A stretch of DNA of 64,000 nt. Origin: a virus. A program made the translations under genes and the position numbers. This document shows, one piece after another, positions 29,985-51,957 of this stretch. The notes beneath the pieces were generated by a model, which saw nothing but the letters and a program-made list of their open reading frames with translations, was not told where the DNA came from and did no database searches. Within the stretch, counting starts at the first letter, position 1. Every line of letters starts with the position of its first letter. The stretch lies in IMG/VR virus record IMGVR_UViG_3300031957_002938, positions 25,659-89,658 of that record; one strand, given 5' to 3'.

Positions 29985-31244
29985 TTAATTATTGAATTCA
30001 AGCTTAATAGCTTTTGAAGTCCCAGCCAAACCAAGATAAACATCGTCGCCTTTTACTAAAGGTGCTGTTGAGTATCCCGTCCCGATGCTCATAATACCAG
30101 AGCCGTCTTCAACAGTCAAGTTGCCATCTGAAAATTCATATTCATAATCTTTCCACTGTATCTCATAAGTCTCTGGATTAATCCTAAAACATTTTGTATC
30201 AGCCCAAAACGTGCTGTAAACCCAACCGTCAGGGGCTAAATAACCTTGAAAGCTTTTGTTTTTATTAGCTACCGCCAAGAAATCTGGAGGCAAATCAATC
30301 TCTTCATAGCTATCGTCAGAACAATCAATGATAAGAATTTTTCTACCTGTTCTTGGGATGCAAAATACTTTATTAACTGATGCAACATATGTAGCTCCTA
30401 CATATTTGACATCAAACCCACTGGTCCCAGATTTAACAGGTTCTCCCTCAAGATATTTAAAAACGCCATTTTTATCTATTTTAGCGACGCTTTGATTCAA
30501 AGCAGGGGGCATATAAATCTCTCCCTTTGCATCTGCTGCTGCACCCCAAATATGGCCAAAAGCTGACCAAAATCCACCTTTGACTGGTTTATCTGGGGTG
30601 TATGATCCTACTTCTCCAGTATTTGTATCTAAAGTATAAATCTTTAGAGTCTTAGTGTATGAGGGCATATAAATAATACCATTTAACCCCTCTGCCCCAG
30701 ATCTAATTTGAGGACTCGTCCTGAATTTTTTTTCTATGGTTATAGAACCAGTCTTCCTACCAAGCTTACCAATAGAACTCGCATAAGCTGGCATAAAATA
30801 AGTGTATCCATCTGAAGCTTCAACAGTGCCGATAAAACCTTTATAACCTAATTCATTTCTTTTTATAGAATCAGTAGCTGTATCAGTCTCAATATGCATA
30901 TTCGACTTATAACCTAATGAATGAATTGTCCCGTTATCATCCATAGCCATAGTGCGTGTTTTGGTAAGATTACCTACTATTTCATTTTTTAAATATTTAA
31001 AATTCGGCCAAGGCAAATTCCTTAAATTAATACTGACGCTCGTCGAACCGATGCCAACACTCGTCGAACCAATGCCAACGCTCGTCGAACCGATACCAAC
31101 GCTCGTCGAACCGATACCAACGCTCGTCGAACCAATGCCAACGCTCGTCGAACCGATACCAACTCTTGGAGACACAACCTCGTCAACTGCTTTGTTGTAA
31201 CTTTTAAATAAGTTAATTATTTTTTTTATAAATCCAAAAAACAT
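29985..31244 (-). CDS. Beta-propeller-like protein with N-terminal (VGIGSTS)x6 repeat
   Basis: Repeating DG.IY.MP / G.VY blade-like motifs. Confidence 0.65.
   Translation of the reverse strand: MFFGFIKKIINLFKSYNKAVDEVVSPRVGIGSTSVGIGSTSVGIGSTSVGIGSTSVGIGSTSVGIGSTSVSINLRNLPWPNFKYLKNEIVGNLTKTRTMAMDDNGTIHSLGYKSNMHIETDTATDSIKRNELGYKGFIGTVEASDGYTYFMPAYASSIGKLGRKTGSITIEKKFRTSPQIRSGAEGLNGIIYMPSYTKTLKIYTLDTNTGEVGSYTPDKPVKGGFWSAFGHIWGAAADAKGEIYMPPALNQSVAKIDKNGVFKYLEGEPVKSGTSGFDVKYVGATYVASVNKVFCIPRTGRKILIIDCSDDSYEEIDLPPDFLAVANKNKSFQGYLAPDGWVYSTFWADTKCFRINPETYEIQWKDYEYEFSDGNLTVEDGSGIMSIGTGYSTAPLVKGDDVYLGLAGTSKAIKLEFNN
31038..31163 (-). repeat. Six tandem 21-bp in-frame repeats
   Basis: (gctcgtcgaaccratrccaac)x6. 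Confidence 0.95.
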
Positions 31245-31249
31245 CTTTT

Positions 31250-31549
31250 TTAATAATCTAAAAGAACATACGTAGGTGCAATTTCAGAAATTTCTTTGCA
31301 GACACTTTCTATCTCTTGTTTTTCCATTTTCCGAGACAATCTCTTAAGCCTAGTGACCTCCCAACAAAACTTTTGGTATTCTTCGTTTTGGGTGATGTTT
31401 GTTCTAGTCTCGCTGTCGTAGACAAACGAGTCAAAAGTCTCGTATCTTGTCGGGTCGATACACCTCTCAATAGGATCAAAAACTGAATTACCAACAACCC
31501 AATTAAAGATATCATGGGTGTTGACCTTGATGTTGAATTTATTCATCAA
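31250..31549 (-). CDS. Hypothetical protein
   Basis: ORF track. Confidence 0.6.
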   Translation of the reverse strand: MMNKFNIKVNTHDIFNWVVGNSVFDPIERCIDPTRYETFDSFVYDSETRTNITQNEEYQKFCWEVTRLKRLSRKMEKQEIESVCKEISEIAPTYVLLDY

Positions 31550-31579
31550 GTATTATATATAGCGATAACTATATGTCTA

Positions 31580-32200
31580 CTAAACTATTCTGATTCTACT
31601 CCTGATTTTAGAGACATGGCGTTTCTTCTCTAATACGGAGCCACCTTCTCTACTACCAGCGCCATTAGTATTGCCTTCTATAGTGATAACATAACCACTA
31701 GAATCAATGTCTTTTACAGCGAGACCTATATGAGAGAATGAGAAAACAACAATGTCACCAGCTTTGATGTCCTCATTCGTTGGCTTACGTAGGTCTACAC
31801 CTTTACCAGATTGTTGTTTAGCCCAATTTTCAAAATCCCAAGCACCCGCAGTTCTAGGACGTTTAAAAGAAACGTCTTCTCCTTCTATAGCTTCTCTGAC
31901 TAGCCAACAAATAAAAGCCGCGCACCAAGGCCAACCTTTATCTGGGTCTAACCAAGTAGCAGCTTTATATTGATCTACTCTTGGGCCACAATTACTACCA
32001 TCAACTTCTGATACTCCTATCTCTCCGCGAGCTAATTGAACCATTTTATCTCCTATACCACCAGAGAGATTAACGGCTTCTTTTGTAGATAGTTCCGCTA
32101 ATATAGCATTCCAAGTTACAGGTCCATCAGCACCATCAGAAGAAACACCGAGGAGTTTTTGAATCGCTTTTACAACTTCTTTTTTACCTTTAAAATTCAT
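31580..32200 (-). CDS. Endolysin: PG-binding domain plus CHAP amidase
   Basis: IQKLLGV..DG.DGP.TW; PWCAAFI, GDIVVF..SHIG, TIEGNT. Confidence 0.9.
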   Translation of the reverse strand: MNFKGKKEVVKAIQKLLGVSSDGADGPVTWNAILAELSTKEAVNLSGGIGDKMVQLARGEIGVSEVDGSNCGPRVDQYKAATWLDPDKGWPWCAAFICWLVREAIEGEDVSFKRPRTAGAWDFENWAKQQSGKGVDLRKPTNEDIKAGDIVVFSFSHIGLAVKDIDSSGYVITIEGNTNGAGSREGGSVLEKKRHVSKIRSRIRIV

Positions 32201-32805
32201 TACGCACACTTTCTACTAAATCCAGTACATATCGACATTACAACACATAATACGATAGCCAAGATCATAAAATCTCTATAAGTCGAAATTTCATTATTTA
32301 AAATTTCAGATTGAGCTTCATTATAATACATTTTTATATCCATTATTTGATTAATAGCGTCAATCGTGGGGTCGGTCATCTCATACATTACAGGAACTGA
32401 AGCTTTAATTTTATCTACCTCACCAGCTTGACCCCATTTAATTAACTTATCTACATACAAAGTTATTTTTTCTTCTTGATCAAAAACAAATTGAGCGAAT
32501 TCTTTTTCTTCAGAAGTAATATTTTTTTTATAATCTTTTAGAAGTTTATCTTTATTAACCCTTTCCTCTTCTAAAACATCCACCATTTCTAAAGGAGTAA
32601 TGACTCCATGAGAAGTTTTAACTACGGAATCGACTATAATTACTCCATACCAATCAAAACACATCCCTATTTCCATAATAGAAGACTCCGATTGCCTAGC
32701 ATTTTCTTTTAAGGTCGATTCGATATTCTCCGTAAGAATTAAACCTTTCCAAGCAAAGCAAAGGGAAATAGCAGCTAAACAATAAACTATAAATTTAGGT
32801 CTCAT
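32200..32805 (-). CDS. Stand-alone chemoreceptor-type four-helix-bundle sensor (TM-periplasmic-TM)
   Basis: DWYGVIIVDSVVK..HG.I, Y...ITSEEK and MYEMTDPTIDAINQIMDI resemble 4HB_MCP ligand-binding domains; no cytoplasmic signalling domain. Confidence 0.55.
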   Translation of the reverse strand: MRPKFIVYCLAAISLCFAWKGLILTENIESTLKENARQSESSIMEIGMCFDWYGVIIVDSVVKTSHGVITPLEMVDVLEEERVNKDKLLKDYKKNITSEEKEFAQFVFDQEEKITLYVDKLIKWGQAGEVDKIKASVPVMYEMTDPTIDAINQIMDIKMYYNEAQSEILNNEISTYRDFMILAIVLCVVMSICTGFSRKCA

Positions 32806-33119
32806 CTTTTAATAAATTTCGCTGGGTTTTTAGCGAATTTTTCTCCTAGACGCACAATTCCAGCAATTATTTCAGGGCTAATTACACCAATAATACCATA
32901 AGTAACTGCTTTCGTAAGAGAGGATACATCTGTTTGCTCTAAAACAAACCAAGCAATACCAGCAGATATGGCTGCTGTTAATACTCTTTTTAATTGTTGT
33001 TTTATTGATAATCCATTATGACCAGACAAAAGTCTAGCAAACATAGCTGCTGCGCCGACTAGAGGTACTAACCATCCCCCATTTAAAAACTCTCTTAAAA
33101 TAGACTTTTCAGGTTCCAT
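32802..33119 (-). CDS. Holin (LydA-like, 3 TM)
   Basis: Three hydrophobic segments, basic C-terminus, upstream of the endolysin, GTGTAA motif. Confidence 0.7.
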   Translation of the reverse strand: MEPEKSILREFLNGGWLVPLVGAAAMFARLLSGHNGLSIKQQLKRVLTAAISAGIAWFVLEQTDVSSLTKAVTYGIIGVISPEIIAGIVRLGEKFAKNPAKFIKR

Positions 33120-33142
33120 GTTTAATTAATTACACGGAATAT

Positions 33143-33171
33143 AAAAAAAGCCCCCCTTTCGGGAGGCTTTT
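33143..33171 (-). terminator. Rho-independent terminator (possibly bidirectional)
   Basis: aaaaaaagccccc-ctttc-gggaggctttt. Confidence 0.75.
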
Positions 33172-33195
33172 AATAACAATTTTTTTAGTCTGTTA

Positions 33196-33888
33196 TTAGA
33201 ATTCGTATTTAAATCCTAGTCCAAAGTTCCAATCATGATCAAGACTATATGGTGAATTGTCTACATCATTGTGGTTATAAGTAGCTTTAGCTGCGACTGA
33301 AAGTCCGTTGCCAAAATCATAATCAACAACTGTCCCAACCTCTACTGCGTTGTAAGAGTTAGCTAAGTTAGTTGTGATAAATGGAATGACGCTAAGATTA
33401 GCGACTGGAGTTTCAAAGATTCGGGAAGCAGTAAGCTCTACACCGTAGGAAGCGCTTGATCCAAGCTCATGCCAAACAGTTGCACTTACGTCAGCCAACT
33501 CATGAGAGTAAGCTAAACCCAAACCAACTTGCTCCCAACCTCCGAAATCAGTTTCTACCTTTTGGAAAGATACTTTAGCATCGAAAGCTTGACCCAAAAA
33601 ATCGACACCTCTACTCCAAGAAACATCAACCTGTGAATCAGTGTCATTATCTGTTTCGAAGAGACCTACACCAGCAGAAAGAGATCCTCCACCAACATCA
33701 GTGCCGAGAAGAAGAGAATAGTTAAATGCATCATCTCTTACTTTTAGACCCCTAGTGTTTGTTAATTCAGTGTGAGAAACTCCGAGATCTACAGAGATAC
33801 CTTGAGTAAGGCTAGAAGAAGTTTCGGTTCCTGCGCTACTGAAAGCAGCGCCCAACATAGTCATAAGACCAATTACTAGTTTTTTCAT
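33196..33888 (-). CDS. Outer-membrane beta-barrel protein
   Basis: Sec signal peptide, alternating amphipathic strands, C-terminal GLGFKYEF BAM motif. Confidence 0.8.
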   Translation of the reverse strand: MKKLVIGLMTMLGAAFSSAGTETSSSLTQGISVDLGVSHTELTNTRGLKVRDDAFNYSLLLGTDVGGGSLSAGVGLFETDNDTDSQVDVSWSRGVDFLGQAFDAKVSFQKVETDFGGWEQVGLGLAYSHELADVSATVWHELGSSASYGVELTASRIFETPVANLSVIPFITTNLANSYNAVEVGTVVDYDFGNGLSVAAKATYNHNDVDNSPYSLDHDWNFGLGFKYEF

Positions 33889-33946
33889 ATATATTTTCTA
33901 TTATTACAATTTTTTAATTTTTGTCAAATAAAAGTTACACTAAAAG

Positions 33947-34189
33947 TTATTTTCCAGAGTAAATTTCTCTTTCTAATCTACGGAAACGAGCATCTGAATG
34001 CCAAACTTCATCAGTTTGAGGTGTATAAATACCCTCTTTAGTCTGTATTGGAAGCCCCTTGTCCAGTTTTAGAATAGAAGGTTGATAAATGTTTAAACTG
34101 TTTACGCTCATCAGCGAGTTGCTGGCGCAAGAGGTCAGCCCTATCAGCGTCATCGCTAGTGCCATTTTGCCTAAGTTTTTCAATTTCAT
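33947..34189 (-). CDS. o-spanin-like lipoprotein
   Basis: Lipobox LTSC; overlaps 34038-34307 in another frame. Confidence 0.6.
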   Translation of the reverse strand: MKLKNLGKMALAMTLIGLTSCASNSLMSVNSLNIYQPSILKLDKGLPIQTKEGIYTPQTDEVWHSDARFRRLEREIYSGK

Positions 34190-34307
34190 TAATAAGTTTT
34201 ACTTCTGTTTGTTGATGTTCCTTATGTAAATCGTAATAAAATTTATTATTTTTTATATTTAAAAATAATTCTAAAGATTTTAAAATAGATTTAATTATGG
34301 AAAACAT
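34038..34307 (-). CDS. i-spanin-like protein
   Basis: Amphipathic N-terminus plus coiled coil; Rz/Rz1-like overlap with the lipoprotein. Confidence 0.5.
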   Translation of the reverse strand: MFSIIKSILKSLELFLNIKNNKFYYDLHKEHQQTEVKLINEIEKLRQNGTSDDADRADLLRQQLADERKQFKHLSTFYSKTGQGASNTD

Positions 34308-34504
34308 TATTTTTTGGCTTTCTTACTATAATCAAAAATAAGTTTTTCTGTAACATCGCCGTCATAGACTTCTTTTACAACGCCTCTAACTGCTTTAGCA
34401 CAATCAATAGCCCAATCGCGAGAACCTTTTAGCTTTGCACTGTAGCCATGATGATACTCGCCCTTCTTCGTATATACCCTGTAAAGGATAGGTTTCGATT
34501 TCAT
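34307..34504 (-). CDS. Hypothetical protein
   Basis: ORF track, overlapping neighbours. Confidence 0.6.
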   Translation of the reverse strand: MKSKPILYRVYTKKGEYHHGYSAKLKGSRDWAIDCAKAVRGVVKEVYDGDVTEKLIFDYSKKAKK

Positions 34505-35211
34505 TTATTTGGTATAAATTGCAGGGAGATATTCCCTACATTGTTTTCATTATCAGAGATAAGTCCATTTAGAAGAACAGATTCAGAGAGAAAGTCAACC
34601 CCTTTTTCATCTAAAAGGTAAATTTCTTCATCAATAGCAATTTCTCTTAGCAATCCATGCTTAACTCTTCGAGTTGATCTAAGGAACGCATCCTTACCAA
34701 CTAAATGTTCAGTTGCTTTATTTGTTCCTACTACTTTGAATTTAACGGTCATAATATTTTTATTACAGAAAATTACAGTGTTGTCCTCGTCATTGAGGAT
34801 AATAGCGTTTTTGCAATATTTTTCAATCCATTTTTTGAAAGACCTAACTTTAAAAGTGCGCCTGATTTCACTTTTTAAATAAGCTTTATCAGAGTCTTCA
34901 AGAGCTTTTTTTACCAAAAGACGAGCTGTTGATGCGAGCTTAAAGTTGCCAGCTTTTGAAGAAATACCAAAAATAAAAACTAAATCTAAACACATCTGCT
35001 CTTCTTTGATAAACGAAAAAGCAAATGGCCCGTCTTCTTTTTCAACTTTATAAACCCTGTAAGACGAAAATTCTTCGAATACGTTTTTTATTTTATAATC
35101 CCTTAAAGCTTTTGATTTGAGAGAGCAGAAGTCATAAGGTTTTGATTTTACACAAAACTCATAAAAATATGGCCATACTTCAGCAGGGTCTTTTACCTGT
35201 GTAATTTTCAC
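34501..35211 (-). CDS. Hypothetical protein (possible degenerate GNAT-like N-domain)
   Basis: 236 aa ORF. Confidence 0.55.
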   Translation of the reverse strand: MKITQVKDPAEVWPYFYEFCVKSKPYDFCSLKSKALRDYKIKNVFEEFSSYRVYKVEKEDGPFAFSFIKEEQMCLDLVFIFGISSKAGNFKLASTARLLVKKALEDSDKAYLKSEIRRTFKVRSFKKWIEKYCKNAIILNDEDNTVIFCNKNIMTVKFKVVGTNKATEHLVGKDAFLRSTRRVKHGLLREIAIDEEIYLLDEKGVDFLSESVLLNGLISDNENNVGNISLQFIPNK

Positions 35212-41300: not shown

Positions 41301-43042
41301 AGATTTTCGATGCGATAAACACCATCGCAGCTTTATTCAGAGGAAGAACATTCTTTAGTAATTCTGAAATTAATTTTGTAGACGATAGGCCGCGAACAGC
41401 AGTAAATTTATTCACAAACGAAAGTGTTAAAGATGGTCTTTTCTTCTACTCAAACAATAGGAGAGATGAGCAATTTAACTGTATAGAAGTCGGATATAGA
41501 GATAGATTCGATAATTTTTCTCCTAAAATTGAGGTAGTAGAAGACGAGGAAGACATTAAAGAGCGTGGTATTTTTAAGAAAAAAATAGAAGGTATAGGCA
41601 TCACTTCTAGAGCGATGGCTCGTAGAACTGCACAACACCAAATTTTCTCTAAGTTAAAAGAGAATCAACAAGTTGCATTTACCGCAGGACTAGAAAGTCT
41701 ATTATGCAAACCTGGAGATCTTGTTATAGTAGAAGATGAATTAAAAACTAATGTAGCAAATTTTGGAAAAGTATTAGCTGTAGACTTAGAGGCAGAAACC
41801 ATTAGATTAACAAACCAATTTAACTCCTCGTCTATGAATGGAGTGTTAAGCGTCTACAATCCTACAGGTTCTGATTCTTACGAAGAATTAAATTTAATAG
41901 CTAATTCTAGGAGACAAAGGTATGACAACTTTACAGTAACAGGTATAGATAGTGATAGTTGGTCAAGATACACAGGAGAATATGTTTTTTCTGGTTATAC
42001 TCAAGGATATCCTGAAGCCACAGGAGCAGGAGATCCTAGATTCCAGCAATACGCAGCTTATACAGGTCTGCCCGAAAGCGGAACAATGGTTTACTTTGAT
42101 CCTGTAACAGTAGGGTGGATTTTCGCCTCTGGAACAGGAGAAGGTAATGCAAGCGCTATTGATTTAAGATCTGGTGATCTAATATCTGAATTAACTGGCG
42201 CTCAAACATTGTCTGATTTTAATACTGGTAAAATAGCCGTGTATAATATGCCAGCTAGGACAAGAGGGGCATCTACCGTTTTTAGCGGTATAACTTCTTT
42301 TGAAGTTCCGACAAGGGGCATAACTGAATCTGAACTTTCTGTAGCGAATCCAAATCAAATATCTATTTTAAGTGTTACGGGATCTGTTATAGACCAAGAT
42401 TATGGATCGATAGTTTCTGGTTTCAGTAATCCAAGCATATTACCTTTTGTCAAATTGGGTAGCCCTGCAAAATTTGAGAGAGCAAAAGCTAGCCCATTTT
42501 TCTATAAAGTTATTTCTATGCAGGAACAAGCCACTAACGAATATTTAGTCACTGCTACAAAATACGATACGGGCAAGTTTAATTTAATTGATAAAAATAT
42601 AAGTATCGAAGAAAAAGTAGACACTTTTAGTTATCAAGTAGCTCAAACAATAAATGGAGTCACATATAAAACATTAGATGCTCCCGTTCTTGACAATGTT
42701 ACGACAGGAGTTCCTAACGCTTCAGATGGAACCTTCACTATCACAGGAATGTGGACTGGGATCACTCCAGTTAGCGATATCACAGGATACAATATGGTTT
42801 TAGATTTGCCTAATGGACAATCTGCGAGTGAATTTGTAGAAAAGACAATTACTGGAGGAGAATTTACAGGGCTTAATCAGGTGGGTGTATATAACTTTAA
42901 AGTGAATGCATTAGGAAATAAAGCTGGCAGTGCAGGTAATGCATATTTCGATTCTGACTACGCATCATCAGGTATATTTGTCCTTTATGAAGAATCTTTA
43001 ACATTTTCTAAATCATTTTTAGATAGAATAACAATCCTATAA
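38393..43042 (+). CDS. gpJ-like central tail tip/host-specificity protein
   Basis: DLISDGPIEGL, YPYSA, KVKVPSNY, WTDNPAWILYDLL...RYGMG, EPRYSCN, GITSR..ARR, C-terminal FN3-like domain. Confidence 0.9.
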   Translation: MKHLLKKLSIAGGGSRKKPKPPIYKPPVMGELQYGASFSYAETLDLISDGPIEGLVNANGKTVDGLEMLQGIYLDDTAVAVTTDSDTTGDELTTLETETIETLNMELDSTKGIAFCSEFFQELKESSNRSSDGRITALNSNTAGGIDSDEGSSNSDVAMVYLRETKTLFNSLRNSVTEPLLPAAISDFAAYIRGFVKYRGSAGAQTFQWYLNGERQTGYSDSNAAFRDDSRAKGTLGSLLWADTVLASSKFVFSFQPNLRFVEISRGRRIPFRGAFHSNSEGVFDQNEQRINEVVYDELNTIYGLFANNNQQGGNRLQKELALRALNRLNFTEDNVNNLIFNYLNPEEYGGVIIVKVEDSNSNLNKSILDGNQLFNMTTFPVGSQSNFNLIAVMQNAGMRVTDVTCPEINSDGTLTGKMHGFLIFEFPIENDSVETFAPTNIDNTLFKYGEAHTYKIPREVIVALSDLNSFKYAKTLEITEDLIQTDSTVNNFNTTNLKYNYSNVLAEFKKGEETQDAFTYFSKVFIDHLYDRELFGPFGTARAEGNSNTEADQVNTPQRIITNVSMLTRDRVLGESATNYNTDLVNGLPLNEGSDDERRDARNIQRNYSNWGENSFANFDEQEIPVVHTVYNPNVDEAFVTIDISALKDTLIKDVDDVRTGRGKDNKDLSIGTSFPTVLNIKVETGTILENEGLQKHKEYIYRIVALIEGNTLIDIGNPDYKAATGREFVVQLNGADDHLNYLSRPFELPESKSKNKLVLSADGEVGIEAGTLDQDSTQKRYVKVSKLSYETNSALLAKSVNVRKVTEIIKVNLPYPYSAIVGTKLDSRAFGSIPRRSFDCKLKKVKVPSNYFPTKNGRDKRYYNNQELFDNTSKRDKLIYKGDWDGSFRDELIWTDNPAWILYDLLTSSRYGMGSHINSDTINKWQLYKIGRFCDAVDEQGYFEGVTDGRGGKEPRYSCNIVFDQGQKIFDAINTIAALFRGRTFFSNSEINFVDDRPRTAVNLFTNESVKDGLFFYSNNRRDEQFNCIEVGYRDRFDNFSPKIEVVEDEEDIKERGIFKKKIEGIGITSRAMARRTAQHQIFSKLKENQQVAFTAGLESLLCKPGDLVIVEDELKTNVANFGKVLAVDLEAETIRLTNQFNSSSMNGVLSVYNPTGSDSYEELNLIANSRRQRYDNFTVTGIDSDSWSRYTGEYVFSGYTQGYPEATGAGDPRFQQYAAYTGLPESGTMVYFDPVTVGWIFASGTGEGNASAIDLRSGDLISELTGAQTLSDFNTGKIAVYNMPARTRGASTVFSGITSFEVPTRGITESELSVANPNQISILSVTGSVIDQDYGSIVSGFSNPSILPFVKLGSPAKFERAKASPFFYKVISMQEQATNEYLVTATKYDTGKFNLIDKNISIEEKVDTFSYQVAQTINGVTYKTLDAPVLDNVTTGVPNASDGTFTITGMWTGITPVSDITGYNMVLDLPNGQSASEFVEKTITGGEFTGLNQVGVYNFKVNALGNKAGSAGNAYFDSDYASSGIFVLYEESLTFSKSFLDRITIL

Positions 43043-46000
43043 TGAACCAAACAGGCTATACAGTATTAAAAATACCCAAGACTGGTGCAGCTTTTGCATA
43101 CGCAAAACAAGCTAGAGATTTCGCTACTGGAGCTACAGGTGCAGGGGGATATTTACATACTACTGCAACTAATGAACAATGGAGAGATGTTAGGTTTGTA
43201 AGTGCAATTTTAGAAGGGTCTAGTTCTTTACCTGTATCTATCGGAGCTTCTTATTCGGATCTTTACACTGGGGTAACCACTGTTATTGGTGGGACAACCC
43301 CTATCGGAGATTTAAGATCGGAAGATGGACCTTACGTTACTGTAGGATCTTCAAGTTTATACTATACGAAAAAAGGTCAAGAATATGGAGGAGCTTTTTA
43401 TGCTGCGTATATCGGGGGAACTAATTCATTACCAACAAAAATAGGTGTTGGAACTACGGCTGGTGATGTAACTGCAAATGGATATTTTGAAGGGTCTTTC
43501 ACGACCAACGATATTCATGAATTTCAGACATCTTTTACTGCTGACTCTACAGATTTATCAAAAATTACAACTGGAAGTGGAGTTTATACAGAAGGAGCTG
43601 ACGTAACTTTACAGTTTAATATTTTAAACAGAAATGGAGAACAATTATCTTCAGCAGCACAAATAGCTGCCGATCCATTTGTAAGTGGGCAAAAAATAAG
43701 CATTCTAAACACAGATGGAACCATAGCTTTCTCTGATTATAGAATCGGTGGAGACTCTACTTTTACTTTTTCTAGCTCACAAAACATAGATGTCTTCGGG
43801 ACTTTTACTAGAAACTTCGGAATTAGAAATCAAGTAGTAAACCAAGATGGAGGAGTCCACACTAGTGAGTTTTATTTATATGCTAACACGGCTACTTTTG
43901 ATAAAGTATTTGTTAGGTCTTCGGGGCAAACAGTTTTAAATGAAAGCTATACAAATAATAGCCCCCCAAACACTGGTAGTATACCAACCTCAAGTGAAAG
44001 AGCAAATGCGCTTAAATATTTTAACAATCAACCGATAAATGATTCGGGTGTTACTGGGTTTATTGAGTTTGATTTAGGGTTTAATGAATCACCAAACTTC
44101 ACAAGTTTAGGGGATCTTGTTGTATTTTATGGAACTAGCGGAGACTTTACGACAAATAGAAGTTCTCTAGTAGGAAACTTCCCCCTTAATTCTGTGCAAG
44201 AGGGGCAAAGAATTAGACTAACGGCCAATGATGGGATTCCAGAGGGAACAGGTCTATTTTTCAAATTAGCTGCCGATACTGAAGTAGGATTTAATGAAGA
44301 GTTATTTAATGTAGGGCCATTTACTCTCGAACCAGAAGTAGAAGGCCCAGATTTAAATCTTTATAACCAAGGAGACCAAACTCTTGTAGGAGATTTCACA
44401 ATCGAAGGAGGATTAGAAGGAGATGACGCAGACGGAGGTAATCTCAATGTTAGTGGTAATGCGTTAGGAACAGGAGAGGCAGGAAGATTAACTGGTCCGA
44501 CAGGTATCCCTTATTTACTTTCTGGAGATGCCGCAGGAACCGAATCAGATACTTTACAAACTGTAACAGCTCGCGGAAACACTACTGTAGGTCTAGACGT
44601 AAATTTCCAAGATATTCTATATGTCGATCACACTAATGACAGAGTAGGAATAGGGACAATTAGCCCACAAACGCCTTTACATGTTGAATCAGAATCCTTC
44701 TTTGATGGTAATGTAGGTATAGGGACAATTAATCCAACACAAAAATTAGATGTAAATGGAATAATAACCAGTAAAGGGTTACAGACAAATACAACTAACA
44801 CTAATTACAACCTAATCAGTAGAAACAATGCAGGTAATTCACCGCTTTATGTTCAGTCTGCTAACTCAAATACTGATCAACCAATAGCCTTCTTTAGTTA
44901 TGGTAGTGCTACAGCAAATGCGGGGACTAAAATATTAAAAGTAGGAAAAGATAAAAGTTATTTTGATAATACTAATGTTGGTATAGGATCAACAATCCCA
45001 ACAGTCGCATTAGATGTCGCAGGAGCTGGCAAATTTACAAGTCAAGTAACAATACCCGCCACCCCTTTAGCCTCAACAGATGCTGCATCAAAAGGATATG
45101 TCGATGCTCAAGTAGGTTCGGCAGATACACTACAAGAAGTGGTGGACAATGGTAATGCTACAACTACTGATATTAATTATAATGGATCGAAGATTATCTT
45201 CAATGGAGACACTGATAAATCAATTGGTTACTCTACAGATAGCCCAGAAGGTTTGCTTCTCGGAACAGATGTAAAATCAATTAAGACAGCACATAGTGAC
45301 CAATTCACTTTATTCCCAAATCAATCAGTAGCTATTGGAGCATCTGCTGAAATTATTGGAGCTTCTCCAGCTACAGGGTCAGCAGTTCTCGGAGGGACAG
45401 GAAATCGTATCAGTGGACACTTCAATACTTTGGTCGGTGGCGCTCAAAACAAAATATCTGGAGACTTATTAGGTTTTAACTTTATCGGGGGTGGTTCTGG
45501 AATTGATGTAATAGATAGCCAATATTCTTCTAGTGTAGGCGGTTACAATAATGATGTTTTAGGTTCTGACTATTCAGTAATTGCTGGAGGTCATGGAAAC
45601 AAAGCCACTGGAGTAAATGGTATATTTATAGGTGGAGGTTTTGGTAACACAGCCAAAGGGGGTAGTTCGGTTATTGTCGGAGGCCAGAGCAATACAATCC
45701 ACGGTAATAGCAACCGTAGTTTTATCGGAGCTGGAGCATCAAATGTTATAAGTGGAGAGGAAAATGTCATAGGAGGCGGTAATAATCATCTAATCGAAGG
45801 AAGTCGCTCTGTTATTCTTGGTGGTGACTTTAACGAAATCAAAGCCGATGACGGTGTAGTCGCTGGTTCTTATTCTAAAGTCCAAGCGGGGCATGGGGGA
45901 GCTTTTGTATTTAGTGATTCTAATTCCACGCCAACATTATCCACTGGTGCGAATGCAATGGTATTAAATTTCGCTGGTGGCGTTCATGTGCCTACCAGTG

Positions 46001-49000
46001 GAGTATTCGGACAAGGCTTATTTGTTAGTGGTGTTCCTGTTTTGACTGGCGAGAATAATCCAGCAGAGGCTGATACTTTACAGACTGTTACTGATCGTGG
46101 CGCTACCACCACTAATAGTATCACGGTAGGACTTACATTAGATGTCGCCGATTCTGTAAGACATGCTGGTGATACAGATACAAGATTAGACTTCGCTCCA
46201 GATCAGGTGAAACTTGTTTCTAATGGCATAACACGTTTACAAACGGAAAACGCTGGAGTCATTATTAATGAAGGAGGTGTTTCTGCCGACTTTAGAGTCG
46301 AGGGTGACACTGATACTCACGCATTATTTGTAGATGGCTCTGCTGATAATGTAGGTATAGGCGTAAATACCCCTACAACGAAATTAGCAGTTGATGGGAC
46401 GATATCTGGCGTTAGTGGACAATTTGATCAAGGCTTGTTCATAAGCGGTGTCCCAGTGTCAACGGGTTCTGCCGCTGAAGCGGATACTCTACAAACTGTC
46501 ACAGATCGCGGTGCTACTAGCACCAATGCTATTAGCGTATCTAATGTTGTAACAGCTAACCAGTTCAATGTGGGTAATGAAGGTAAGGTTATCTCTACCT
46601 CCACATTAGGTCTTCAACTCCAAGCTAATAGCACAGATAAGCCAATTATATTTTCCACTAACAGTGGAGGTATGACTGAAAGGATGCGTATTACAAGGAC
46701 GGGTGTCGGAATAGGTGTGCCAGATCCTGTGGAAATGTTAGAGTTGGGTGCAGGAGGAAGAATAGGATTAACAGATTCTGCTGGGACATATGATAGTGTT
46801 GTTTATAATGATGGCTCTACTTTCAAAGTAGCTGACGGTGCGGGTAGTTATCATGTTGATAAAATCAATCTATTAGGTCTATTAGACTTAGGTGTTGGGC
46901 ATACTATCAAAGGAGTAGATAACTCAATTATAGCAAACAAAGATATTTTAGCACCAAAAGATGGAAGTTTTGGTTTTAGAACTTACGGAGCTACTAATCA
47001 ATACGATGCAATAAGTTCTCAATTCATTGATAACAACAACAATGCATTGTCATTTAATGTAAAAGCTGGTGGCACTACGTCAGAAGCCTTCCGTATAGAC
47101 AAAGATGGAAACATAGGTGTCGATACGACTGCTCCATTAGCTAAACTTGACGTTAGAGGTGACATCTCTGGTTCTGGTAGTTTTTTAGGCACTGGCGTAG
47201 GTAATCGCATAACAAATAACGGTGTTCCTTATCTCCTTTCAGGTGATTCACCAGCAGAAACCCAAACTCTTCAAGACGTTTGTGATAACGGCAACACAAC
47301 CACTACTGCCGTTAATATTAGTGGAGATATAACTGTAGCTAATAATATATTTAAAAATGTAGAAAATTCATCTTTAGGACTATATGGAGGATCAGATACA
47401 CTCACTAATGATGGGTTTATAAAGATTCATGGCAACGCAAACAATTGGGGTAAAGTCCAAACTAACATAGGATATGATGCCACAAATAGTAAGGCTCATT
47501 GGACATTAAATAATACCACAGAGTTAATGACTCTGAAGGGAGATGGCTCTTTAGGTCTAGGAACAACCGCTCCAACTGAAACATTAGATGTAAGAGGAAC
47601 CACACTTTTGTCTGGAGATGTAACAGTCGCAGATGGCAAAGATATACTATTAGACGGTCACAGTTCGCAAATTCAGTTTGATACTACTAGTAACTTTATA
47701 GATAAAAGTTCTGATTCTAGTATGCGTATTAGAGTTTCGGATAATAGTGCGACTTTAAGACATGAGCTTCTAGGTGCTAGAGAACACGACATGAACTTTA
47801 GGTGGTTCCAAGGTCCACACTCTAGTTCTTTTAAAGAACTAATGACCCTTAGTGCGAGCGGTCGCCTTCGTATTGGACAGGATACAGACGGTTCTGTGCC
47901 TCTGACCACGCTGGACGTAAGAGGAGATATCTCTGGTTCAGGTAGTTTCTTGGGAACAGGAGACGGAAATAGAATTACCAATAACGGTGTGCCTTACCTC
48001 CTCTCTGGAGATTCTCCTGCGGAGAATGACACACTGCAAGATGTCACGACTCGCGGCAACAGCACAAGCACTTCGATTCTTTCTACTGGCCCACACATCT
48101 CTGGTGTTACGGGATTATACAGCGATAAGGTGGGGATAGGAACAGATAATCCTCAAGAAAAACTTCATGTAGATGAAGGCTATATACTAGCTGATGGCGC
48201 GTCTACAAATCACGGATTTGAATTAAGAAGAGATTCTTCTGATACTTTCCAAATAAGACATTTAGGAGGTAATTTTACTATAAATAACCTTACAGATAAC
48301 CGCAAAGATTTATCTATTGATGGAGATGGTAATGTTGGTATTGGAACAAATGCTCCATCAGAGAGATTAGATATAGTATCAGGTCATATAAGCGTCCAAT
48401 CCAATCCAGTTGGTGGTATAACTCCTCCAGTTTTAACTATAGGACAAGTTAATAATGCTTATCAAGCAGGATTAATATCTGACACCCATGTAACCCTTAA
48501 ATCAACTAACGGGGCTGGAAACATCTACTTCCAACCTGGAAATGCACAAGGGTCCCGCTCCATTGTGAAGAATGATGGCAAAATGGGGGTCAATACTGTT
48601 AGCCCAAACTCCACACTGCATGTCAATGGAGATATTACTGGAGCAGGAGATGTTTTAGGAACAGGTGTTGGTAATAGAATTACCAATAACGGCACACCTT
48701 ATCTACTCTCTGGAGATTCTCCTGCGGAAACGCAAACTCTTCAAGACGTTTGCGACAATGGGAATACAACTACAACTTCCATAATTTCCACGGGACCGCA
48801 CATCTCTGGAGTCACGGGACTGTATAGCACAGTAAAAATAGGAGAAGATGGAGTTGCTGGCGGGAGATTAATTACCGCCGACTCAATGATTTTCCAAATT
48901 GATTGCGACAATACCTCTAGCTCATCAAGCTATAGGTTTAGGAAAGATAGCACAGTTGACGCTGGGACTGAACTAATGCGTATCCAAGAAGATGGTAACG

Positions 49001-51957
49001 TAGGTATAGGAACAGATGCTCCATCTAGCACCCTTGAAGTTGTAGGTCATACAATATCGATAAGCACAACAGGTATTGTTGGTAAGGGGTTCCATTTAGG
49101 AGATTCTTATGGCTCTTTAGGTCTATTTGGCTCTTCAGATGTAGGAACACACTATAATCCAGAAAGTATTACTGTCTCTGCTGGTAATAGAAATGAGTCA
49201 AATAGTGCTTATATAGATATTTATAGTAGATTTGGTAGCACCGCTAGTTCATTTGGTGATATAGATCTTCGTGCTGGTTACAGTTCTGCTAGCAACATGG
49301 AGGGTGATATTAGTTTATATACATCTGGTCAAAATAGATTAATAGCAAAACACGATGGTAATGTAGGGGTAGGAACATCTAGTCCAGACGCGCATTTAAA
49401 TGTATATAATACAGGAATAACTTCAAGTGTAGCTGATGTTCATATTGTCGGCTCTGGTAATACTTATGGTTTACTTTATGAGAGATTAAGAAATGATTCT
49501 CTTATTGTTTCTAAATCAACAAGTGCTGGTTCTTATTTTAAAACAGATTCAGCTACTCCTTCTTTCCAAGGTTATGAAATTGGGACAAACTGGTTCTTGG
49601 GCCAATATGGTTATAATGACTTTAGAATAACCGATGGGTCAAAGAGTGGTGGAACTGCCGCATTGACGATTCAAGATTCTACTCAAAATGTTGGTATAGG
49701 GACAACTGTTCCATCTCAAACACTCCACGTTAAAGGTATTGGTATGATTGAAGATACCAGTTCCACTGCTTATGGAACACTTCAATTTGGAACTAATACC
49801 TCACGTTATATACGTGGTAATTCTGCTGAATTACAAGTTGGTTCTACGATACAGCAACTTCATTTCCAAAACACAAGTGCTGCTGGACAAATCGCCTCAA
49901 GCGCAGCAGACGGAACAGACGCAATCCAAATACTTGCTAGAACTGTTCATACTTCTGCTAATATACTGGAAGTAGTAAATGGCAATGGAGCAGCACCAAT
50001 ATTTACTATTGATTATACTGGTAATGCAGAGGTCACTGGCAGTATCTATGGAACAGGCGCGGGAAATAGAATTACCAAAGATGGAATACCTTATCTGCTT
50101 TCTGGAGATTCTCCTGCGGAGACTCAAACTCTCCAAGACGTTTGTGACAATGGTAATACCACAACGACTTCCATTCTCTCCTCTGGCCCTTATATTTCTG
50201 GGGTTACAGGATTATTTGAAGGGTCTGCGCAAGTCAAAGGCGCTAATAGTTGGGCTGGAGTAGACACCCAAGGTGGCGCTATATATATGTCTGAACTGGG
50301 CAAAGGTCTTCTTGGTAACATGGGTAGTAACTACGCTAGACCACTGATTAGTTCAACAACCCAAACCATAAATATTGGCAGCGACGGAACAAGCGCAATA
50401 AGAAACATTAAATATAATGCTGGTAATGGTGCTGGAGCAGCAGATAGCGAACATAATTTCTACACTAGCGGATCTAACAATAGATTTCATATCGCAAAAG
50501 ACGGTAATGTCGGTATAAACTACGATGATCCTCAATCAAAACTTGATGTCAGATTAGCTGTCGGCGGCACTTCACCTTTAATGGATGCTGGTAATGTTAA
50601 TAACCTTTTAACTTTACGAGTTCCCAATAACTCTGATCCTGCAAGTGTTGCAAACACAGGCGCTAAGTGGGGAATGAAATTAAGAGGTTATATTACCGAT
50701 GCTTCTAATCCAAATAGAAAAACCGCTGCTGTTTACGCTGTTTCTGAAGACTCTTTAGGTTATAACAGAAAAGTTGGGATGGCCTTACACACAAGTCCAT
50801 TCGATGCAGATCATGTAGAGAGAGTTCGTATAGATTGTGATGGTAATGTTGGTATAGGGACAACAAATCCTGTTCAAGAATTACAAGTTAATGGCAATAT
50901 TTATGCAGCAGGAGGACACTTCTTTGTAGATAATGATAAATCTTTAACTGCTGTTGGTGATTTACGTTTAAGAACAAACAATGGAACCACAGCAGTTTTC
51001 ATAGATACAAGTCAAGATGTTGGTATAGGAACAACTAGTCCAGCAGCGAAACTGCATGTAGCAGACTCTAGTAGCACCTCACCGATTAGGGCTTATAACG
51101 GATCATATTACGCTTCTATAGGAGCAAATAATAACGCTGCATGGGTTCAGGCGGGAGGAAGCCCAACCCACGGGTTACGTTTATCCGCTGGGGCCAATGG
51201 AGCAATGTCTGTATATGCTTCTCGCGGCGTAGCAATAGGAGAATACCCTACAACAGATCCAGGAGCAGATAATTTTACTGTCGCAGGTAATGTTGGTATA
51301 GGAACAAATAGTCCAAGTTCCACATTACATGTTTACGATTCAGCAGGACCAACTATAAAGTTTGAAAGAAATAGTAACTCTAATCTAGAATTTATATTTG
51401 GAACTGCTAACACTTCAATTATAGGAGCAGGAGAACTTCAATTTAGAGCTAATGGTGGTACTTCTAATAAGTTTGTAATCAATAATTCTTTGATTACAGC
51501 AAGTGCTGATTTATATGTTAATGCAAATGTAGGTATAGGAACTTCTTCTCCAAGCTATGAACTTGATGTAAATGGAACAACAAGATCTACATACTACATA
51601 GGTGGTGCTTACTTGGAGGAGAACGCATCCTCTAGCAAACTAAAGTTATACCCTGATGGCACAGTCCTTGTAATAAATAAAGATGGAGAACTTGAGCCAT
51701 GTAAAAAAGAAAATGACACTTTAGTCTTTGGTGTCACAAAGGTAGACTTTGATTCTCCTGTAGTGCTTGGTGCAGAGCCTGTTCTTGTAACAGGGCCAGT
51801 CGAAGTGGGTGATTATATTGTGACTTCAAATAAACAAGGTCATGGACAAGCGGCGAAAGATCTTTGGAAAATAAAAGTAGGAACTGTTATTGCACAAGCT
51901 ATGGAAAGTGGTGATGGAGAATCTTATAATATAAAAGCGATGATTAGAAAAATGTAA
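43042..51957 (+). CDS. Giant modular tail fibre 1 (2971 aa) with C-terminal intramolecular-chaperone-like domain
   Basis: More than a dozen GNVGIGT..P repeats, DTLQxVxDxG linkers, a GGxxN YadA-head-like tract, C-terminal GPVEVGDYIVTS...IAQAME. Confidence 0.8.
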   Translation: MNQTGYTVLKIPKTGAAFAYAKQARDFATGATGAGGYLHTTATNEQWRDVRFVSAILEGSSSLPVSIGASYSDLYTGVTTVIGGTTPIGDLRSEDGPYVTVGSSSLYYTKKGQEYGGAFYAAYIGGTNSLPTKIGVGTTAGDVTANGYFEGSFTTNDIHEFQTSFTADSTDLSKITTGSGVYTEGADVTLQFNILNRNGEQLSSAAQIAADPFVSGQKISILNTDGTIAFSDYRIGGDSTFTFSSSQNIDVFGTFTRNFGIRNQVVNQDGGVHTSEFYLYANTATFDKVFVRSSGQTVLNESYTNNSPPNTGSIPTSSERANALKYFNNQPINDSGVTGFIEFDLGFNESPNFTSLGDLVVFYGTSGDFTTNRSSLVGNFPLNSVQEGQRIRLTANDGIPEGTGLFFKLAADTEVGFNEELFNVGPFTLEPEVEGPDLNLYNQGDQTLVGDFTIEGGLEGDDADGGNLNVSGNALGTGEAGRLTGPTGIPYLLSGDAAGTESDTLQTVTARGNTTVGLDVNFQDILYVDHTNDRVGIGTISPQTPLHVESESFFDGNVGIGTINPTQKLDVNGIITSKGLQTNTTNTNYNLISRNNAGNSPLYVQSANSNTDQPIAFFSYGSATANAGTKILKVGKDKSYFDNTNVGIGSTIPTVALDVAGAGKFTSQVTIPATPLASTDAASKGYVDAQVGSADTLQEVVDNGNATTTDINYNGSKIIFNGDTDKSIGYSTDSPEGLLLGTDVKSIKTAHSDQFTLFPNQSVAIGASAEIIGASPATGSAVLGGTGNRISGHFNTLVGGAQNKISGDLLGFNFIGGGSGIDVIDSQYSSSVGGYNNDVLGSDYSVIAGGHGNKATGVNGIFIGGGFGNTAKGGSSVIVGGQSNTIHGNSNRSFIGAGASNVISGEENVIGGGNNHLIEGSRSVILGGDFNEIKADDGVVAGSYSKVQAGHGGAFVFSDSNSTPTLSTGANAMVLNFAGGVHVPTSGVFGQGLFVSGVPVLTGENNPAEADTLQTVTDRGATTTNSITVGLTLDVADSVRHAGDTDTRLDFAPDQVKLVSNGITRLQTENAGVIINEGGVSADFRVEGDTDTHALFVDGSADNVGIGVNTPTTKLAVDGTISGVSGQFDQGLFISGVPVSTGSAAEADTLQTVTDRGATSTNAISVSNVVTANQFNVGNEGKVISTSTLGLQLQANSTDKPIIFSTNSGGMTERMRITRTGVGIGVPDPVEMLELGAGGRIGLTDSAGTYDSVVYNDGSTFKVADGAGSYHVDKINLLGLLDLGVGHTIKGVDNSIIANKDILAPKDGSFGFRTYGATNQYDAISSQFIDNNNNALSFNVKAGGTTSEAFRIDKDGNIGVDTTAPLAKLDVRGDISGSGSFLGTGVGNRITNNGVPYLLSGDSPAETQTLQDVCDNGNTTTTAVNISGDITVANNIFKNVENSSLGLYGGSDTLTNDGFIKIHGNANNWGKVQTNIGYDATNSKAHWTLNNTTELMTLKGDGSLGLGTTAPTETLDVRGTTLLSGDVTVADGKDILLDGHSSQIQFDTTSNFIDKSSDSSMRIRVSDNSATLRHELLGAREHDMNFRWFQGPHSSSFKELMTLSASGRLRIGQDTDGSVPLTTLDVRGDISGSGSFLGTGDGNRITNNGVPYLLSGDSPAENDTLQDVTTRGNSTSTSILSTGPHISGVTGLYSDKVGIGTDNPQEKLHVDEGYILADGASTNHGFELRRDSSDTFQIRHLGGNFTINNLTDNRKDLSIDGDGNVGIGTNAPSERLDIVSGHISVQSNPVGGITPPVLTIGQVNNAYQAGLISDTHVTLKSTNGAGNIYFQPGNAQGSRSIVKNDGKMGVNTVSPNSTLHVNGDITGAGDVLGTGVGNRITNNGTPYLLSGDSPAETQTLQDVCDNGNTTTTSIISTGPHISGVTGLYSTVKIGEDGVAGGRLITADSMIFQIDCDNTSSSSSYRFRKDSTVDAGTELMRIQEDGNVGIGTDAPSSTLEVVGHTISISTTGIVGKGFHLGDSYGSLGLFGSSDVGTHYNPESITVSAGNRNESNSAYIDIYSRFGSTASSFGDIDLRAGYSSASNMEGDISLYTSGQNRLIAKHDGNVGVGTSSPDAHLNVYNTGITSSVADVHIVGSGNTYGLLYERLRNDSLIVSKSTSAGSYFKTDSATPSFQGYEIGTNWFLGQYGYNDFRITDGSKSGGTAALTIQDSTQNVGIGTTVPSQTLHVKGIGMIEDTSSTAYGTLQFGTNTSRYIRGNSAELQVGSTIQQLHFQNTSAAGQIASSAADGTDAIQILARTVHTSANILEVVNGNGAAPIFTIDYTGNAEVTGSIYGTGAGNRITKDGIPYLLSGDSPAETQTLQDVCDNGNTTTTSILSSGPYISGVTGLFEGSAQVKGANSWAGVDTQGGAIYMSELGKGLLGNMGSNYARPLISSTTQTINIGSDGTSAIRNIKYNAGNGAGAADSEHNFYTSGSNNRFHIAKDGNVGINYDDPQSKLDVRLAVGGTSPLMDAGNVNNLLTLRVPNNSDPASVANTGAKWGMKLRGYITDASNPNRKTAAVYAVSEDSLGYNRKVGMALHTSPFDADHVERVRIDCDGNVGIGTTNPVQELQVNGNIYAAGGHFFVDNDKSLTAVGDLRLRTNNGTTAVFIDTSQDVGIGTTSPAAKLHVADSSSTSPIRAYNGSYYASIGANNNAAWVQAGGSPTHGLRLSAGANGAMSVYASRGVAIGEYPTTDPGADNFTVAGNVGIGTNSPSSTLHVYDSAGPTIKFERNSNSNLEFIFGTANTSIIGAGELQFRANGGTSNKFVINNSLITASADLYVNANVGIGTSSPSYELDVNGTTRSTYYIGGAYLEENASSSKLKLYPDGTVLVINKDGELEPCKKENDTLVFGVTKVDFDSPVVLGAEPVLVTGPVEVGDYIVTSNKQGHGQAAKDLWKIKVGTVIAQAMESGDGESYNIKAMIRKM
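47145..50215 (+). repeat. Four copies of an approximately 150-200 bp intragenic repeat (GTG.GNRIT.NG.PYLLSGDSPAE..TLQDV..)
   Basis: Copies near 47145, 47910, 48625 and 50030; a diverged copy near 44460. Confidence 0.85.

Follow-up and report, generated by a model that had tools for sequence, protein, structure and literature searches.

What is a domain built like the sensing part of a chemoreceptor doing in the lysis operon of a virus? The question is raised by a locus within a 64,000-nucleotide stretch of viral DNA (the whole stretch analysed, hereafter the window), which is part of the 89,658-base IMG/VR record IMGVR_UViG_3300031957_002938. This record is estimated to be 81% complete and holds a large terminase gene, lambda-type tail-tip genes and giant open reading frames (ORFs). 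Three chained minus-strand ORFs lie at 33119–32802 (105 amino acids, aa), 32805–32200 (201 aa) and 32209/32200–31580. A preliminary description of this DNA, made from the letters alone, had compared the middle protein to the ligand-binding domain of chemoreceptors and histidine kinases, and had proposed that it ties lysis to an external small molecule or acts as a decoy of host receptors. Our preferred answer, to which we give a probability of roughly 50%, is that the 201-aa protein (the sensor protein below) binds the holin, regulates when lysis occurs and takes its input through a periplasmic domain.

The three genes form the overlapping holin, transmembrane (TM)–periplasmic–TM protein and CHAP endolysin operon that the preliminary description had outlined. 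The holin stop codon and the start of the sensor gene share an ATGA overlap, and the stop of the sensor gene and the endolysin ATG share a TAATG overlap. This ATG at 32200 (MNFKG..., 206 aa), rather than the GTG at 32209, is most likely the endolysin start, because it creates the TAATG overlap and because relatives keep MNFKG while the bases upstream vary. The features of the unit are the following:

32802–33119, minus strand: holin-like protein, 105 aa, with a conserved short N-terminal tail, three hydrophobic helices and a basic C-terminal tail.
32200–32805, minus strand: sensor protein, 201 aa, two-pass, lacking an output domain; its periplasmic part is a four-helix bundle of the chemoreceptor type.
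32734–32796, minus strand: TM1 of the sensor protein, residues ~4–24, running on into bundle helix 1.
32290–32733, minus strand: periplasmic four-helix bundle of the sensor protein, residues ~25–172.
32218–32289, minus strand: TM2 of the sensor protein, residues ~173–196, followed by five cytoplasmic residues (SRKCA) and the stop codon.
31580–32200, minus strand: CHAP-domain endolysin, 206 aa, whose ATG shares one base with the TAA of the sensor gene.

Hydropathy defines the two membrane helices of the sensor protein and shows basic residues at both of its ends. The C-terminus lies five residues past TM2, in agreement with the earlier remark that HAMP and signalling domains are missing. The motifs that had been picked out by eye (DWYGVIIVDSVVKTSHGVI, TSEEK and YEMTDPTIDAINQI) are present in the sequence, and they turn out to be the columns that the sensor protein has in common with P0143, a distant match described below. 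Conservation is highest in two motifs: FDWY..VD..VK..HG closes helix 1 and MY..TDP...IN opens helix 4. In Tar, aspartate is bound at these places.

A word-indexed search with the sensor protein returned 197 relatives at E ≤ 0.01. The best 120 of these are 66–100% identical to it, all come from marine metagenomes, and 119 are exactly 201 aa long. An exhaustive search with phmmer over 1.84 billion representatives gave 42 matches at E ≤ 1e-3, about two dozen of which are proteins of 195–257 aa with the same TM–helical–TM build and 17–34% identity. Three matches are of another kind or greater length: P0143 (E = 1.3e-7), P0151 (521 aa; E = 1.3e-5) and P0159 (541 aa; E = 4.7e-4). Pfam recognizes 4HB_MCP_1 in each of them (5.3e-24, 1.7e-20 and 1.4e-12, respectively), TarH in P0143 and P0151, MCPsignal in P0151 and P0159, and HAMP above the cut-off in P0159 only; P0151 and P0159 are full chemoreceptors with a methyl-accepting chemotaxis protein (MCP) signalling domain. 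A profile built from 33 phage-side proteins, with no chemoreceptor included (A2), aligned with P0143 in hhalign at 97.9% probability (E = 6e-13, 151 columns). The aligned columns span residues 13–165, that is, the periplasmic part, well beyond the membrane helices alone.

Relatives of the sensor protein carry at most a basic tail of 20–60 residues after TM2 and no output domain, and the chemoreceptor signalling domain is likewise absent from the 89,658-base record. The sensor protein had no significant match in PHROGs (best 0.023), and one family member, P0133, scores 16.1 bits against 4HB_MCP_1, where the cut-off is 27. We conclude that the sensor protein is a remote, truncated relative of 4HB_MCP_1 (PF12729) and TarH (PF02203) that lies outside the family in Pfam's sense, a wording we chose because the Pfam scores are below the cut-off and the output domain is lacking.

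The predicted fold points the same way. An AlphaFold2 model built on the A2 alignment reached a mean predicted local distance difference test score (pLDDT) of 88.3 and a predicted template modelling score of 0.72, with helices at residues 3–65 (TM1 and bundle helix 1), 71–93, 98–126, 130–135 and 137–200 (helix 4 and TM2). In this model the sensor protein has the architecture TM1, antiparallel four-helix bundle, TM2. We compared the model with 48,161 chains in a structure scan independent of Foldseek, and the top six were all sensor domains (Z 13.5–14.6): PcaY_PP (Z 14.6, root-mean-square deviation 2.4, 137 residues aligned), MCP2201 (Z 14.6), Vc1313 (Z 14.5 over 154 residues), the kinase sensor Adeh_2942 (Z 14.2), HK9 (Z 13.7) and PilJ (Z 13.5). 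For the matches at Z 14.2–14.6 the deviation was 2.3–2.7 over 132–154 residues. Tar (Z 12.4), Tsr (Z 12.3) and NarQ, including its membrane helices (Z 12.2 over 184 residues), followed at lower ranks. Among predicted viral structures (BFVD) the top match was a '4HB MCP domain-containing protein' (E = 6.4e-3). The resemblance to chemoreceptor and kinase sensors first seen by eye is thus borne out by the phmmer match at 1.3e-7, the profile match at 97.9% and the fold match.

Two further observations concern the sensor protein itself. The cysteine of its ..SRKCA ending (residues 197–201, at 32200–32217 on the minus strand) is kept in close relatives, and several distant clades also carry a cysteine shortly past TM2. 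P0099, which is 67% identical to the sensor protein, is labelled 'soluble cytochrome b562' by one source; this is another four-helix-bundle family, and the label presumably reflects an automatic weak match that fits the fold and is otherwise uninformative.

How tightly is this protein bound to its neighbours? Among 80 IMG/VR loci fetched with the sensor protein (66–99% identity), the holin gene was present in 80 and the CHAP gene in 77; an outer-membrane-protein-like gene, a lipoprotein ORF and a coiled-coil ORF, all described below, were found in 76, 64 and 63. We then pooled 165 loci, several contigs being in twice, 156 of which have a holin match and at least 600 nt downstream. The sensor gene adjoins the holin gene in all 156 informative loci, 154 by an automatic rule and two (L158 and L159) by reading of the ORFs; these loci represent 98 distinct 900-nt holin-plus-downstream sequences. 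The CHAP gene follows in 127 of the 145 loci with room for it.

The pair also persists in three distant clades, in which the sensor protein is 19–28% and the holin 35–58% identical to those of the window. In the first (L081, L085, L087 and L089) the two values are 24% and 54–56%. The second (L161 and L162) has relatives of P0131, itself 28% identical to the window's sensor protein, with a holin at 58% and T4-like structural genes downstream, and the third (L158 and L159) has relatives of P0156 (~20% identical), with a holin at 35–36%. All three have a holin homologue immediately upstream of the sensor gene, the ends overlapping or abutting, and a different gene downstream. The window's CHAP endolysin was not found next door in these clades by tblastn with its own sequence, a comparison that did not extend to scanning the downstream genes with family libraries. 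Searches with P0127 and P0140 yielded no viral loci. The holin–sensor–endolysin order that the preliminary description put forward for checking therefore holds in close relatives, and distant clades keep holin and sensor only. Since the holin is constant and the downstream gene variable, we conclude that the conserved unit is holin plus sensor, not holin–sensor–endolysin.

All three genes are real, and the sensor gene is under purifying selection. The ratio of nonsynonymous to synonymous polymorphism (pN/pS), computed from 400 random pairs among 43 loci, was 0.20 for the sensor gene and 0.11 for both the holin and CHAP genes. Within the sensor gene it was lowest in helix 1 (0.09) and highest in TM2 (0.34).

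A sister lineage shows which part of the protein is constant. P0137, of 81 aa, consists of TM1, ~35 residues and TM2, with the bundle cleanly missing. Six distinct metagenome contigs carry this version in the sensor slot, overlapping the holin stop; the copies are 74–98% identical to P0137 and every one is exactly 81 aa long. The holin is intact in five of the six contigs, and CHAP follows in four (L176–L179). Because the 81-aa forms occupy the same slot, the hairpin is the constant element and the sensor bundle an optional module. These short forms end in ..SKRCR, with the cysteine of the sensor protein retained. One contig, present as L167 and L178, has an in-frame TAA in the holin (~158–163) where relatives have a leucine or isoleucine codon, which may reflect an error in sequencing or a defective variant.

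The partner of the sensor protein is probably a LydA-like holin, a call that rests on sub-threshold family scores. By hydropathy it has three hydrophobic helices and a basic tail, and a low-confidence model (pLDDT 63) places helices at residues 17–32, 39–62 and 67–97. PF16083 (LydA, holin superfamily III) matches 9 of 13 family members, with a best E-value of 1e-5 and a best score of 26.0 bits against a cut-off of 28.4, over profile positions 2–77 of 78. The nearest named clusters by language-model (ESM) features are Phage_holin_3 families (scores 0.90–0.93), and nothing was significant in PHROGs (best 0.0016, a family of unknown function). Its length of 105 aa, membrane helices, charged C-terminal tail and position upstream of a CHAP gene are all traits of the holin class. 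Residues K5, E10, F11 and G14–W16 of the N-terminal tail are invariant across clades, and the positive-inside pattern suggests that this tail faces the periplasm. A complex prediction from alignments of the holin (A4) and of the sensor protein (A2), run without controls, returned 'no answer' (score 0.00), which speaks neither for nor against binding. The third gene of the unit is a clear endolysin: CHAP is above the Pfam cut-off (8.8e-8), and the PHROG endolysin family matches at 2.6e-15. By hydropathy, it has no signal, no stretch resembling a signal-anchor-release sequence and no hydrophobic leader.

How might such a pair work? In our preferred reading, the 201-aa protein is an inner-membrane hairpin of TM1 and TM2 with both ends in the cytoplasm, and its periplasmic loop is a four-helix-bundle sensor domain, possibly dimeric, drawn from common stock with the 4HB_MCP_1/TarH modules of chemoreceptors and sensor kinases. 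Translational coupling ties its production to that of the LydA-like three-helix holin, whose dedicated partner it most likely is. The hairpin would touch the holin in the bilayer and so set the moment of triggering, either delaying it as an antiholin does or advancing it as a pro-holin. The bundle would feed the state of the cell envelope into triggering, be it a bound small molecule or, as for T4 RI, a signal that superinfection has occurred, and this input would pass through the connection between helix 4 and TM2 that chemoreceptors use, with no HAMP, kinase or methyl-accepting part involved. Being encoded with the cognate holin is a trait of antiholins, and here the genes overlap by ATGA and adjoin in 156/156 informative loci. 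More tentatively, the chemoreceptor input module may act as a one-protein transmembrane switch directly on the holin: a ligand or a superinfection cue would shift helix 4 and TM2 as in Tar, and would hold or release the holin in the absence of any kinase or second messenger. We regard this specific version as possible and well short of probable.

Several known systems help to place the proposal. Compared with the 4HB_MCP_1/TarH modules of Tar, Tsr, PcaY_PP, MCP2201, Vc1313 and NarQ, the sensor protein has the same TM1–bundle–TM2 order and a remote homology; it differs in lacking HAMP, methyl-accepting and kinase parts, in scoring below the Pfam cut-off, and in being phage-encoded and translationally coupled to a holin. 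In phage P1, the holin gene lydA overlaps lydB, annotated as 'LydA antagonist', and the endolysin gene is unlinked. According to one account, lydB amber mutants lyse early and LydB delays LydA-dependent lysis by a mode of action that is unknown (PMC9025707). As in P1, the stop of the LydA-like gene overlaps the start of the next gene, and as in P1 the pair can lie away from the endolysin, in this case in the distant clades.

In T4, RI is described as a phage protein whose periplasmic domain restrains the holin upon a periplasmic cue (PMC8385771, PMC11413866). The sensor protein would resemble RI as a phage protein with a periplasmic domain linked to a holin, a likeness of described role that involves no comparison of sequence or fold. 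The target of RI is a large domain that holin T exposes in the periplasm, whereas the holin of the window would offer only a 15-residue periplasmic tail and one short loop; with periplasmic parts this small, contact with the sensor protein would be in the membrane or at the holin tail. A literature survey covering mostly titles and abstract openings, and no supplements, turned up no account in which a holin is paired with a sensor of the chemoreceptor type. Holin-linked regulators with a periplasmic domain are already known from T4 RI; what is new is the kind of module and the way it is wired directly to a three-helix holin.

A number of results weigh against the preferred reading. On the side of homology, the sensor protein has no match to 4HB_MCP_1 in Pfam at E ≤ 1, and the domain matches in only 3 of the 33 family members, at best with an E-value of 0.0051, below the cut-off. 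A profile search of the PDB sequences returned designed helical repeats only. Foldseek found no match in the PDB at E ≤ 1e-3, the best TM-scores being those of sensor domains; weak E-values from this program are common for helical bundles. According to the note of the scan tool, unrelated helical bundles can reach Z 13–14, and for that reason the fold match would be insufficient alone; the sequence evidence and the fold match together lead us to take homology to four-helix-bundle sensors as established. On the side of the holin, the window's own protein has no PF16083 match at E ≤ 0.1, which leaves the holin call to the sub-threshold scores of its family, and its BLASTP comparison with LydA was not significant. 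P1 LydB is not homologous to the sensor protein (hhalign probability 0.3%) and, unlike it, has no four-helix bundle and, according to PMC9025707, no predicted membrane helix; the parallel with P1 is thus one of position only. Finally, TM2, the helix needed to carry any signal, is the least constrained part of the sensor protein, and the 81-aa lineage shows that the bundle is dispensable for the role of the hairpin, whatever that role is.

These last two points favour the strongest competitor, in which the protein is a passive holin accessory: the hairpin would be a structural co-factor, as in a two-component holin or in the control of hole size or placement, and the bundle an inert spacer or a dimerization knob. 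The hairpin-only lineage fits this, since slot and overlaps are retained there and the holin is intact in five of six contigs, as does the strongest constraint being on helix 1 rather than on the predicted signalling helix TM2. Yet a domain of 150 residues that purifying selection maintains in four or more divergent clades would be a costly spacer, and its top conserved motifs, where helix 1 ends and helix 4 begins, are common to a real chemoreceptor. We consider the passive role rather unlikely, and retain a timing regulator with a periplasmic input as the preferred reading.

The remaining alternatives bring in the genes and signals around the unit, which are:

33947–34307, minus strand: probable two-component spanin, an 89-aa coiled-coil ORF (34307–34038) overlapping an 80-aa lipoprotein ORF (34189–33947).
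33146–33171, minus strand: intrinsic-terminator-like hairpin with an 11-pair stem and a T run, which ends the upstream outer-membrane-protein gene; the lysis unit begins just after it.
33126–33139, minus strand: TTCCGTGTAATTAA, which includes GTGTAA, 6 nt before the holin ATG.

The two ORFs at 34307–33947 overlap in different frames. The 80-aa ORF has a lipobox (LTSC), and in the window the 89-aa ORF begins with an anchor of only weak hydrophobicity. Relatives conserve both frames, and the pair is seen again in the distant loci L158 and L159. It has the overlapped layout of two-component spanins and is probably the spanin of the same lysis cluster. Between this pair and the holin, at 33196–33888 on the minus strand, lies a gene with its own terminator for a 230-aa protein whose signal peptide, alternating strand-like pattern and terminal ...GFKYEF give it the look of an outer-membrane beta-barrel. 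It matched no Pfam family above the cut-off, and it is present in 76 of the 80 related loci in very divergent form (37–94% identity).

Could the sensor protein have an envelope function apart from holin triggering, for instance superinfection exclusion or a block of the host envelope, and merely share the late operon? Superinfection-exclusion proteins of phages are often small inner-membrane proteins with periplasmic parts, a build that the sensor protein shares; an outer-membrane-protein gene adjoins, and the sensor gene evolves about twice as fast as its neighbours. Against this, the sensor gene and the holin gene overlap at the holin stop and stay paired in all loci fetched, with every other neighbour changing, and an exclusion function produced only alongside the holin would act late. 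We consider such a function unlikely.

The decoy role raised in the preliminary description fits poorly. A truncated sensor could act as a dominant negative by pairing with, and silencing, a four-helix-bundle chemoreceptor or sensor kinase of the host, and the sensor protein is indeed a true relative of such sensors without output; four-helix-bundle sensors act as dimers. The closest cellular chemoreceptor found is ~22% identical to it, however, which is far too low for specific heterodimers. Its constant linkage is to a holin, not to early host-takeover genes, and the sister lineage has dropped the very part that would do the pairing. We regard this alternative as very improbable.

Least credible is an inner-membrane spanin subunit, the 'plain spanin coiled coil' once named as the case that would overturn the sensor assignment: the N-terminal membrane helix, helical periplasmic part and lysis-cluster location agree with it, but it is excluded by the C-terminal second membrane helix (173–196), which leaves no free end to reach an outer-membrane partner, by model helices that fold back into a bundle, and by the separate conserved spanin-like pair at 34307–33947.

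The other signals and neighbours of the locus can be described briefly. The GTGTAA motif noticed before the holin gene is present within 33126–33139. Its extended form has 13 matches in the window against 10.4 expected, with no repetition beyond chance; we rejected it as a repeated late-promoter element for this window, and it stands as a candidate only, its role as a signal unsupported by the repeat count. No convincing sigma-70-like site was seen between the terminator and the holin start. Beyond the endolysin, at 29985–31244 on the minus strand, a 419-aa protein opens with VGIGSTS repeated six times in tandem; neither Pfam nor PHROGs gives it a family, and tblastn found it in only 3 of the 80 related loci. 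On the plus strand, the giant ORFs at 43042–51957 (2971 aa) and 54814–63999 (>3062 aa, running off the window end) follow the lambda-type tail-tip genes.

The DNA of positions 31000–35000 had no match among the cultured phages of INPHARED, and tblastn of the sensor protein, the holin and the distant relative P0135 against the same set found none even at E ≤ 1; the family thus has no named phage as an anchor. The holin profile found only one 1.8-kb contig in genome_contigs, in a metagenome-assembled genome, which yields no host inference.

Very few phages, T4 with RI and RIII and P1 with LydB among them, have had the regulation of their lysis timing worked out at the molecular level, and for T4 lysis inhibition debate continues over both the cue and what senses it. 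In the family described here, a domain that normally reads the periplasm is tied to a holin in ~100 distinct sequences from uncultured aquatic phages of several types, and the 81-aa 'sensor-less' sister form provides a natural control. If the bundle senses nothing, these proteins would still represent a new and widespread class of holin partner. If it does sense, it would make a compact ligand-to-lysis switch for synthetic biology, and the moment at which abundant ocean phages burst their hosts would vary with the chemistry or the infection state around them, which would bear on models of marine viral lysis. Should the module act directly on the holin, widespread marine and freshwater phages could choose their burst time according to a signal, which would amount to lysis inhibition of a new, modular kind.

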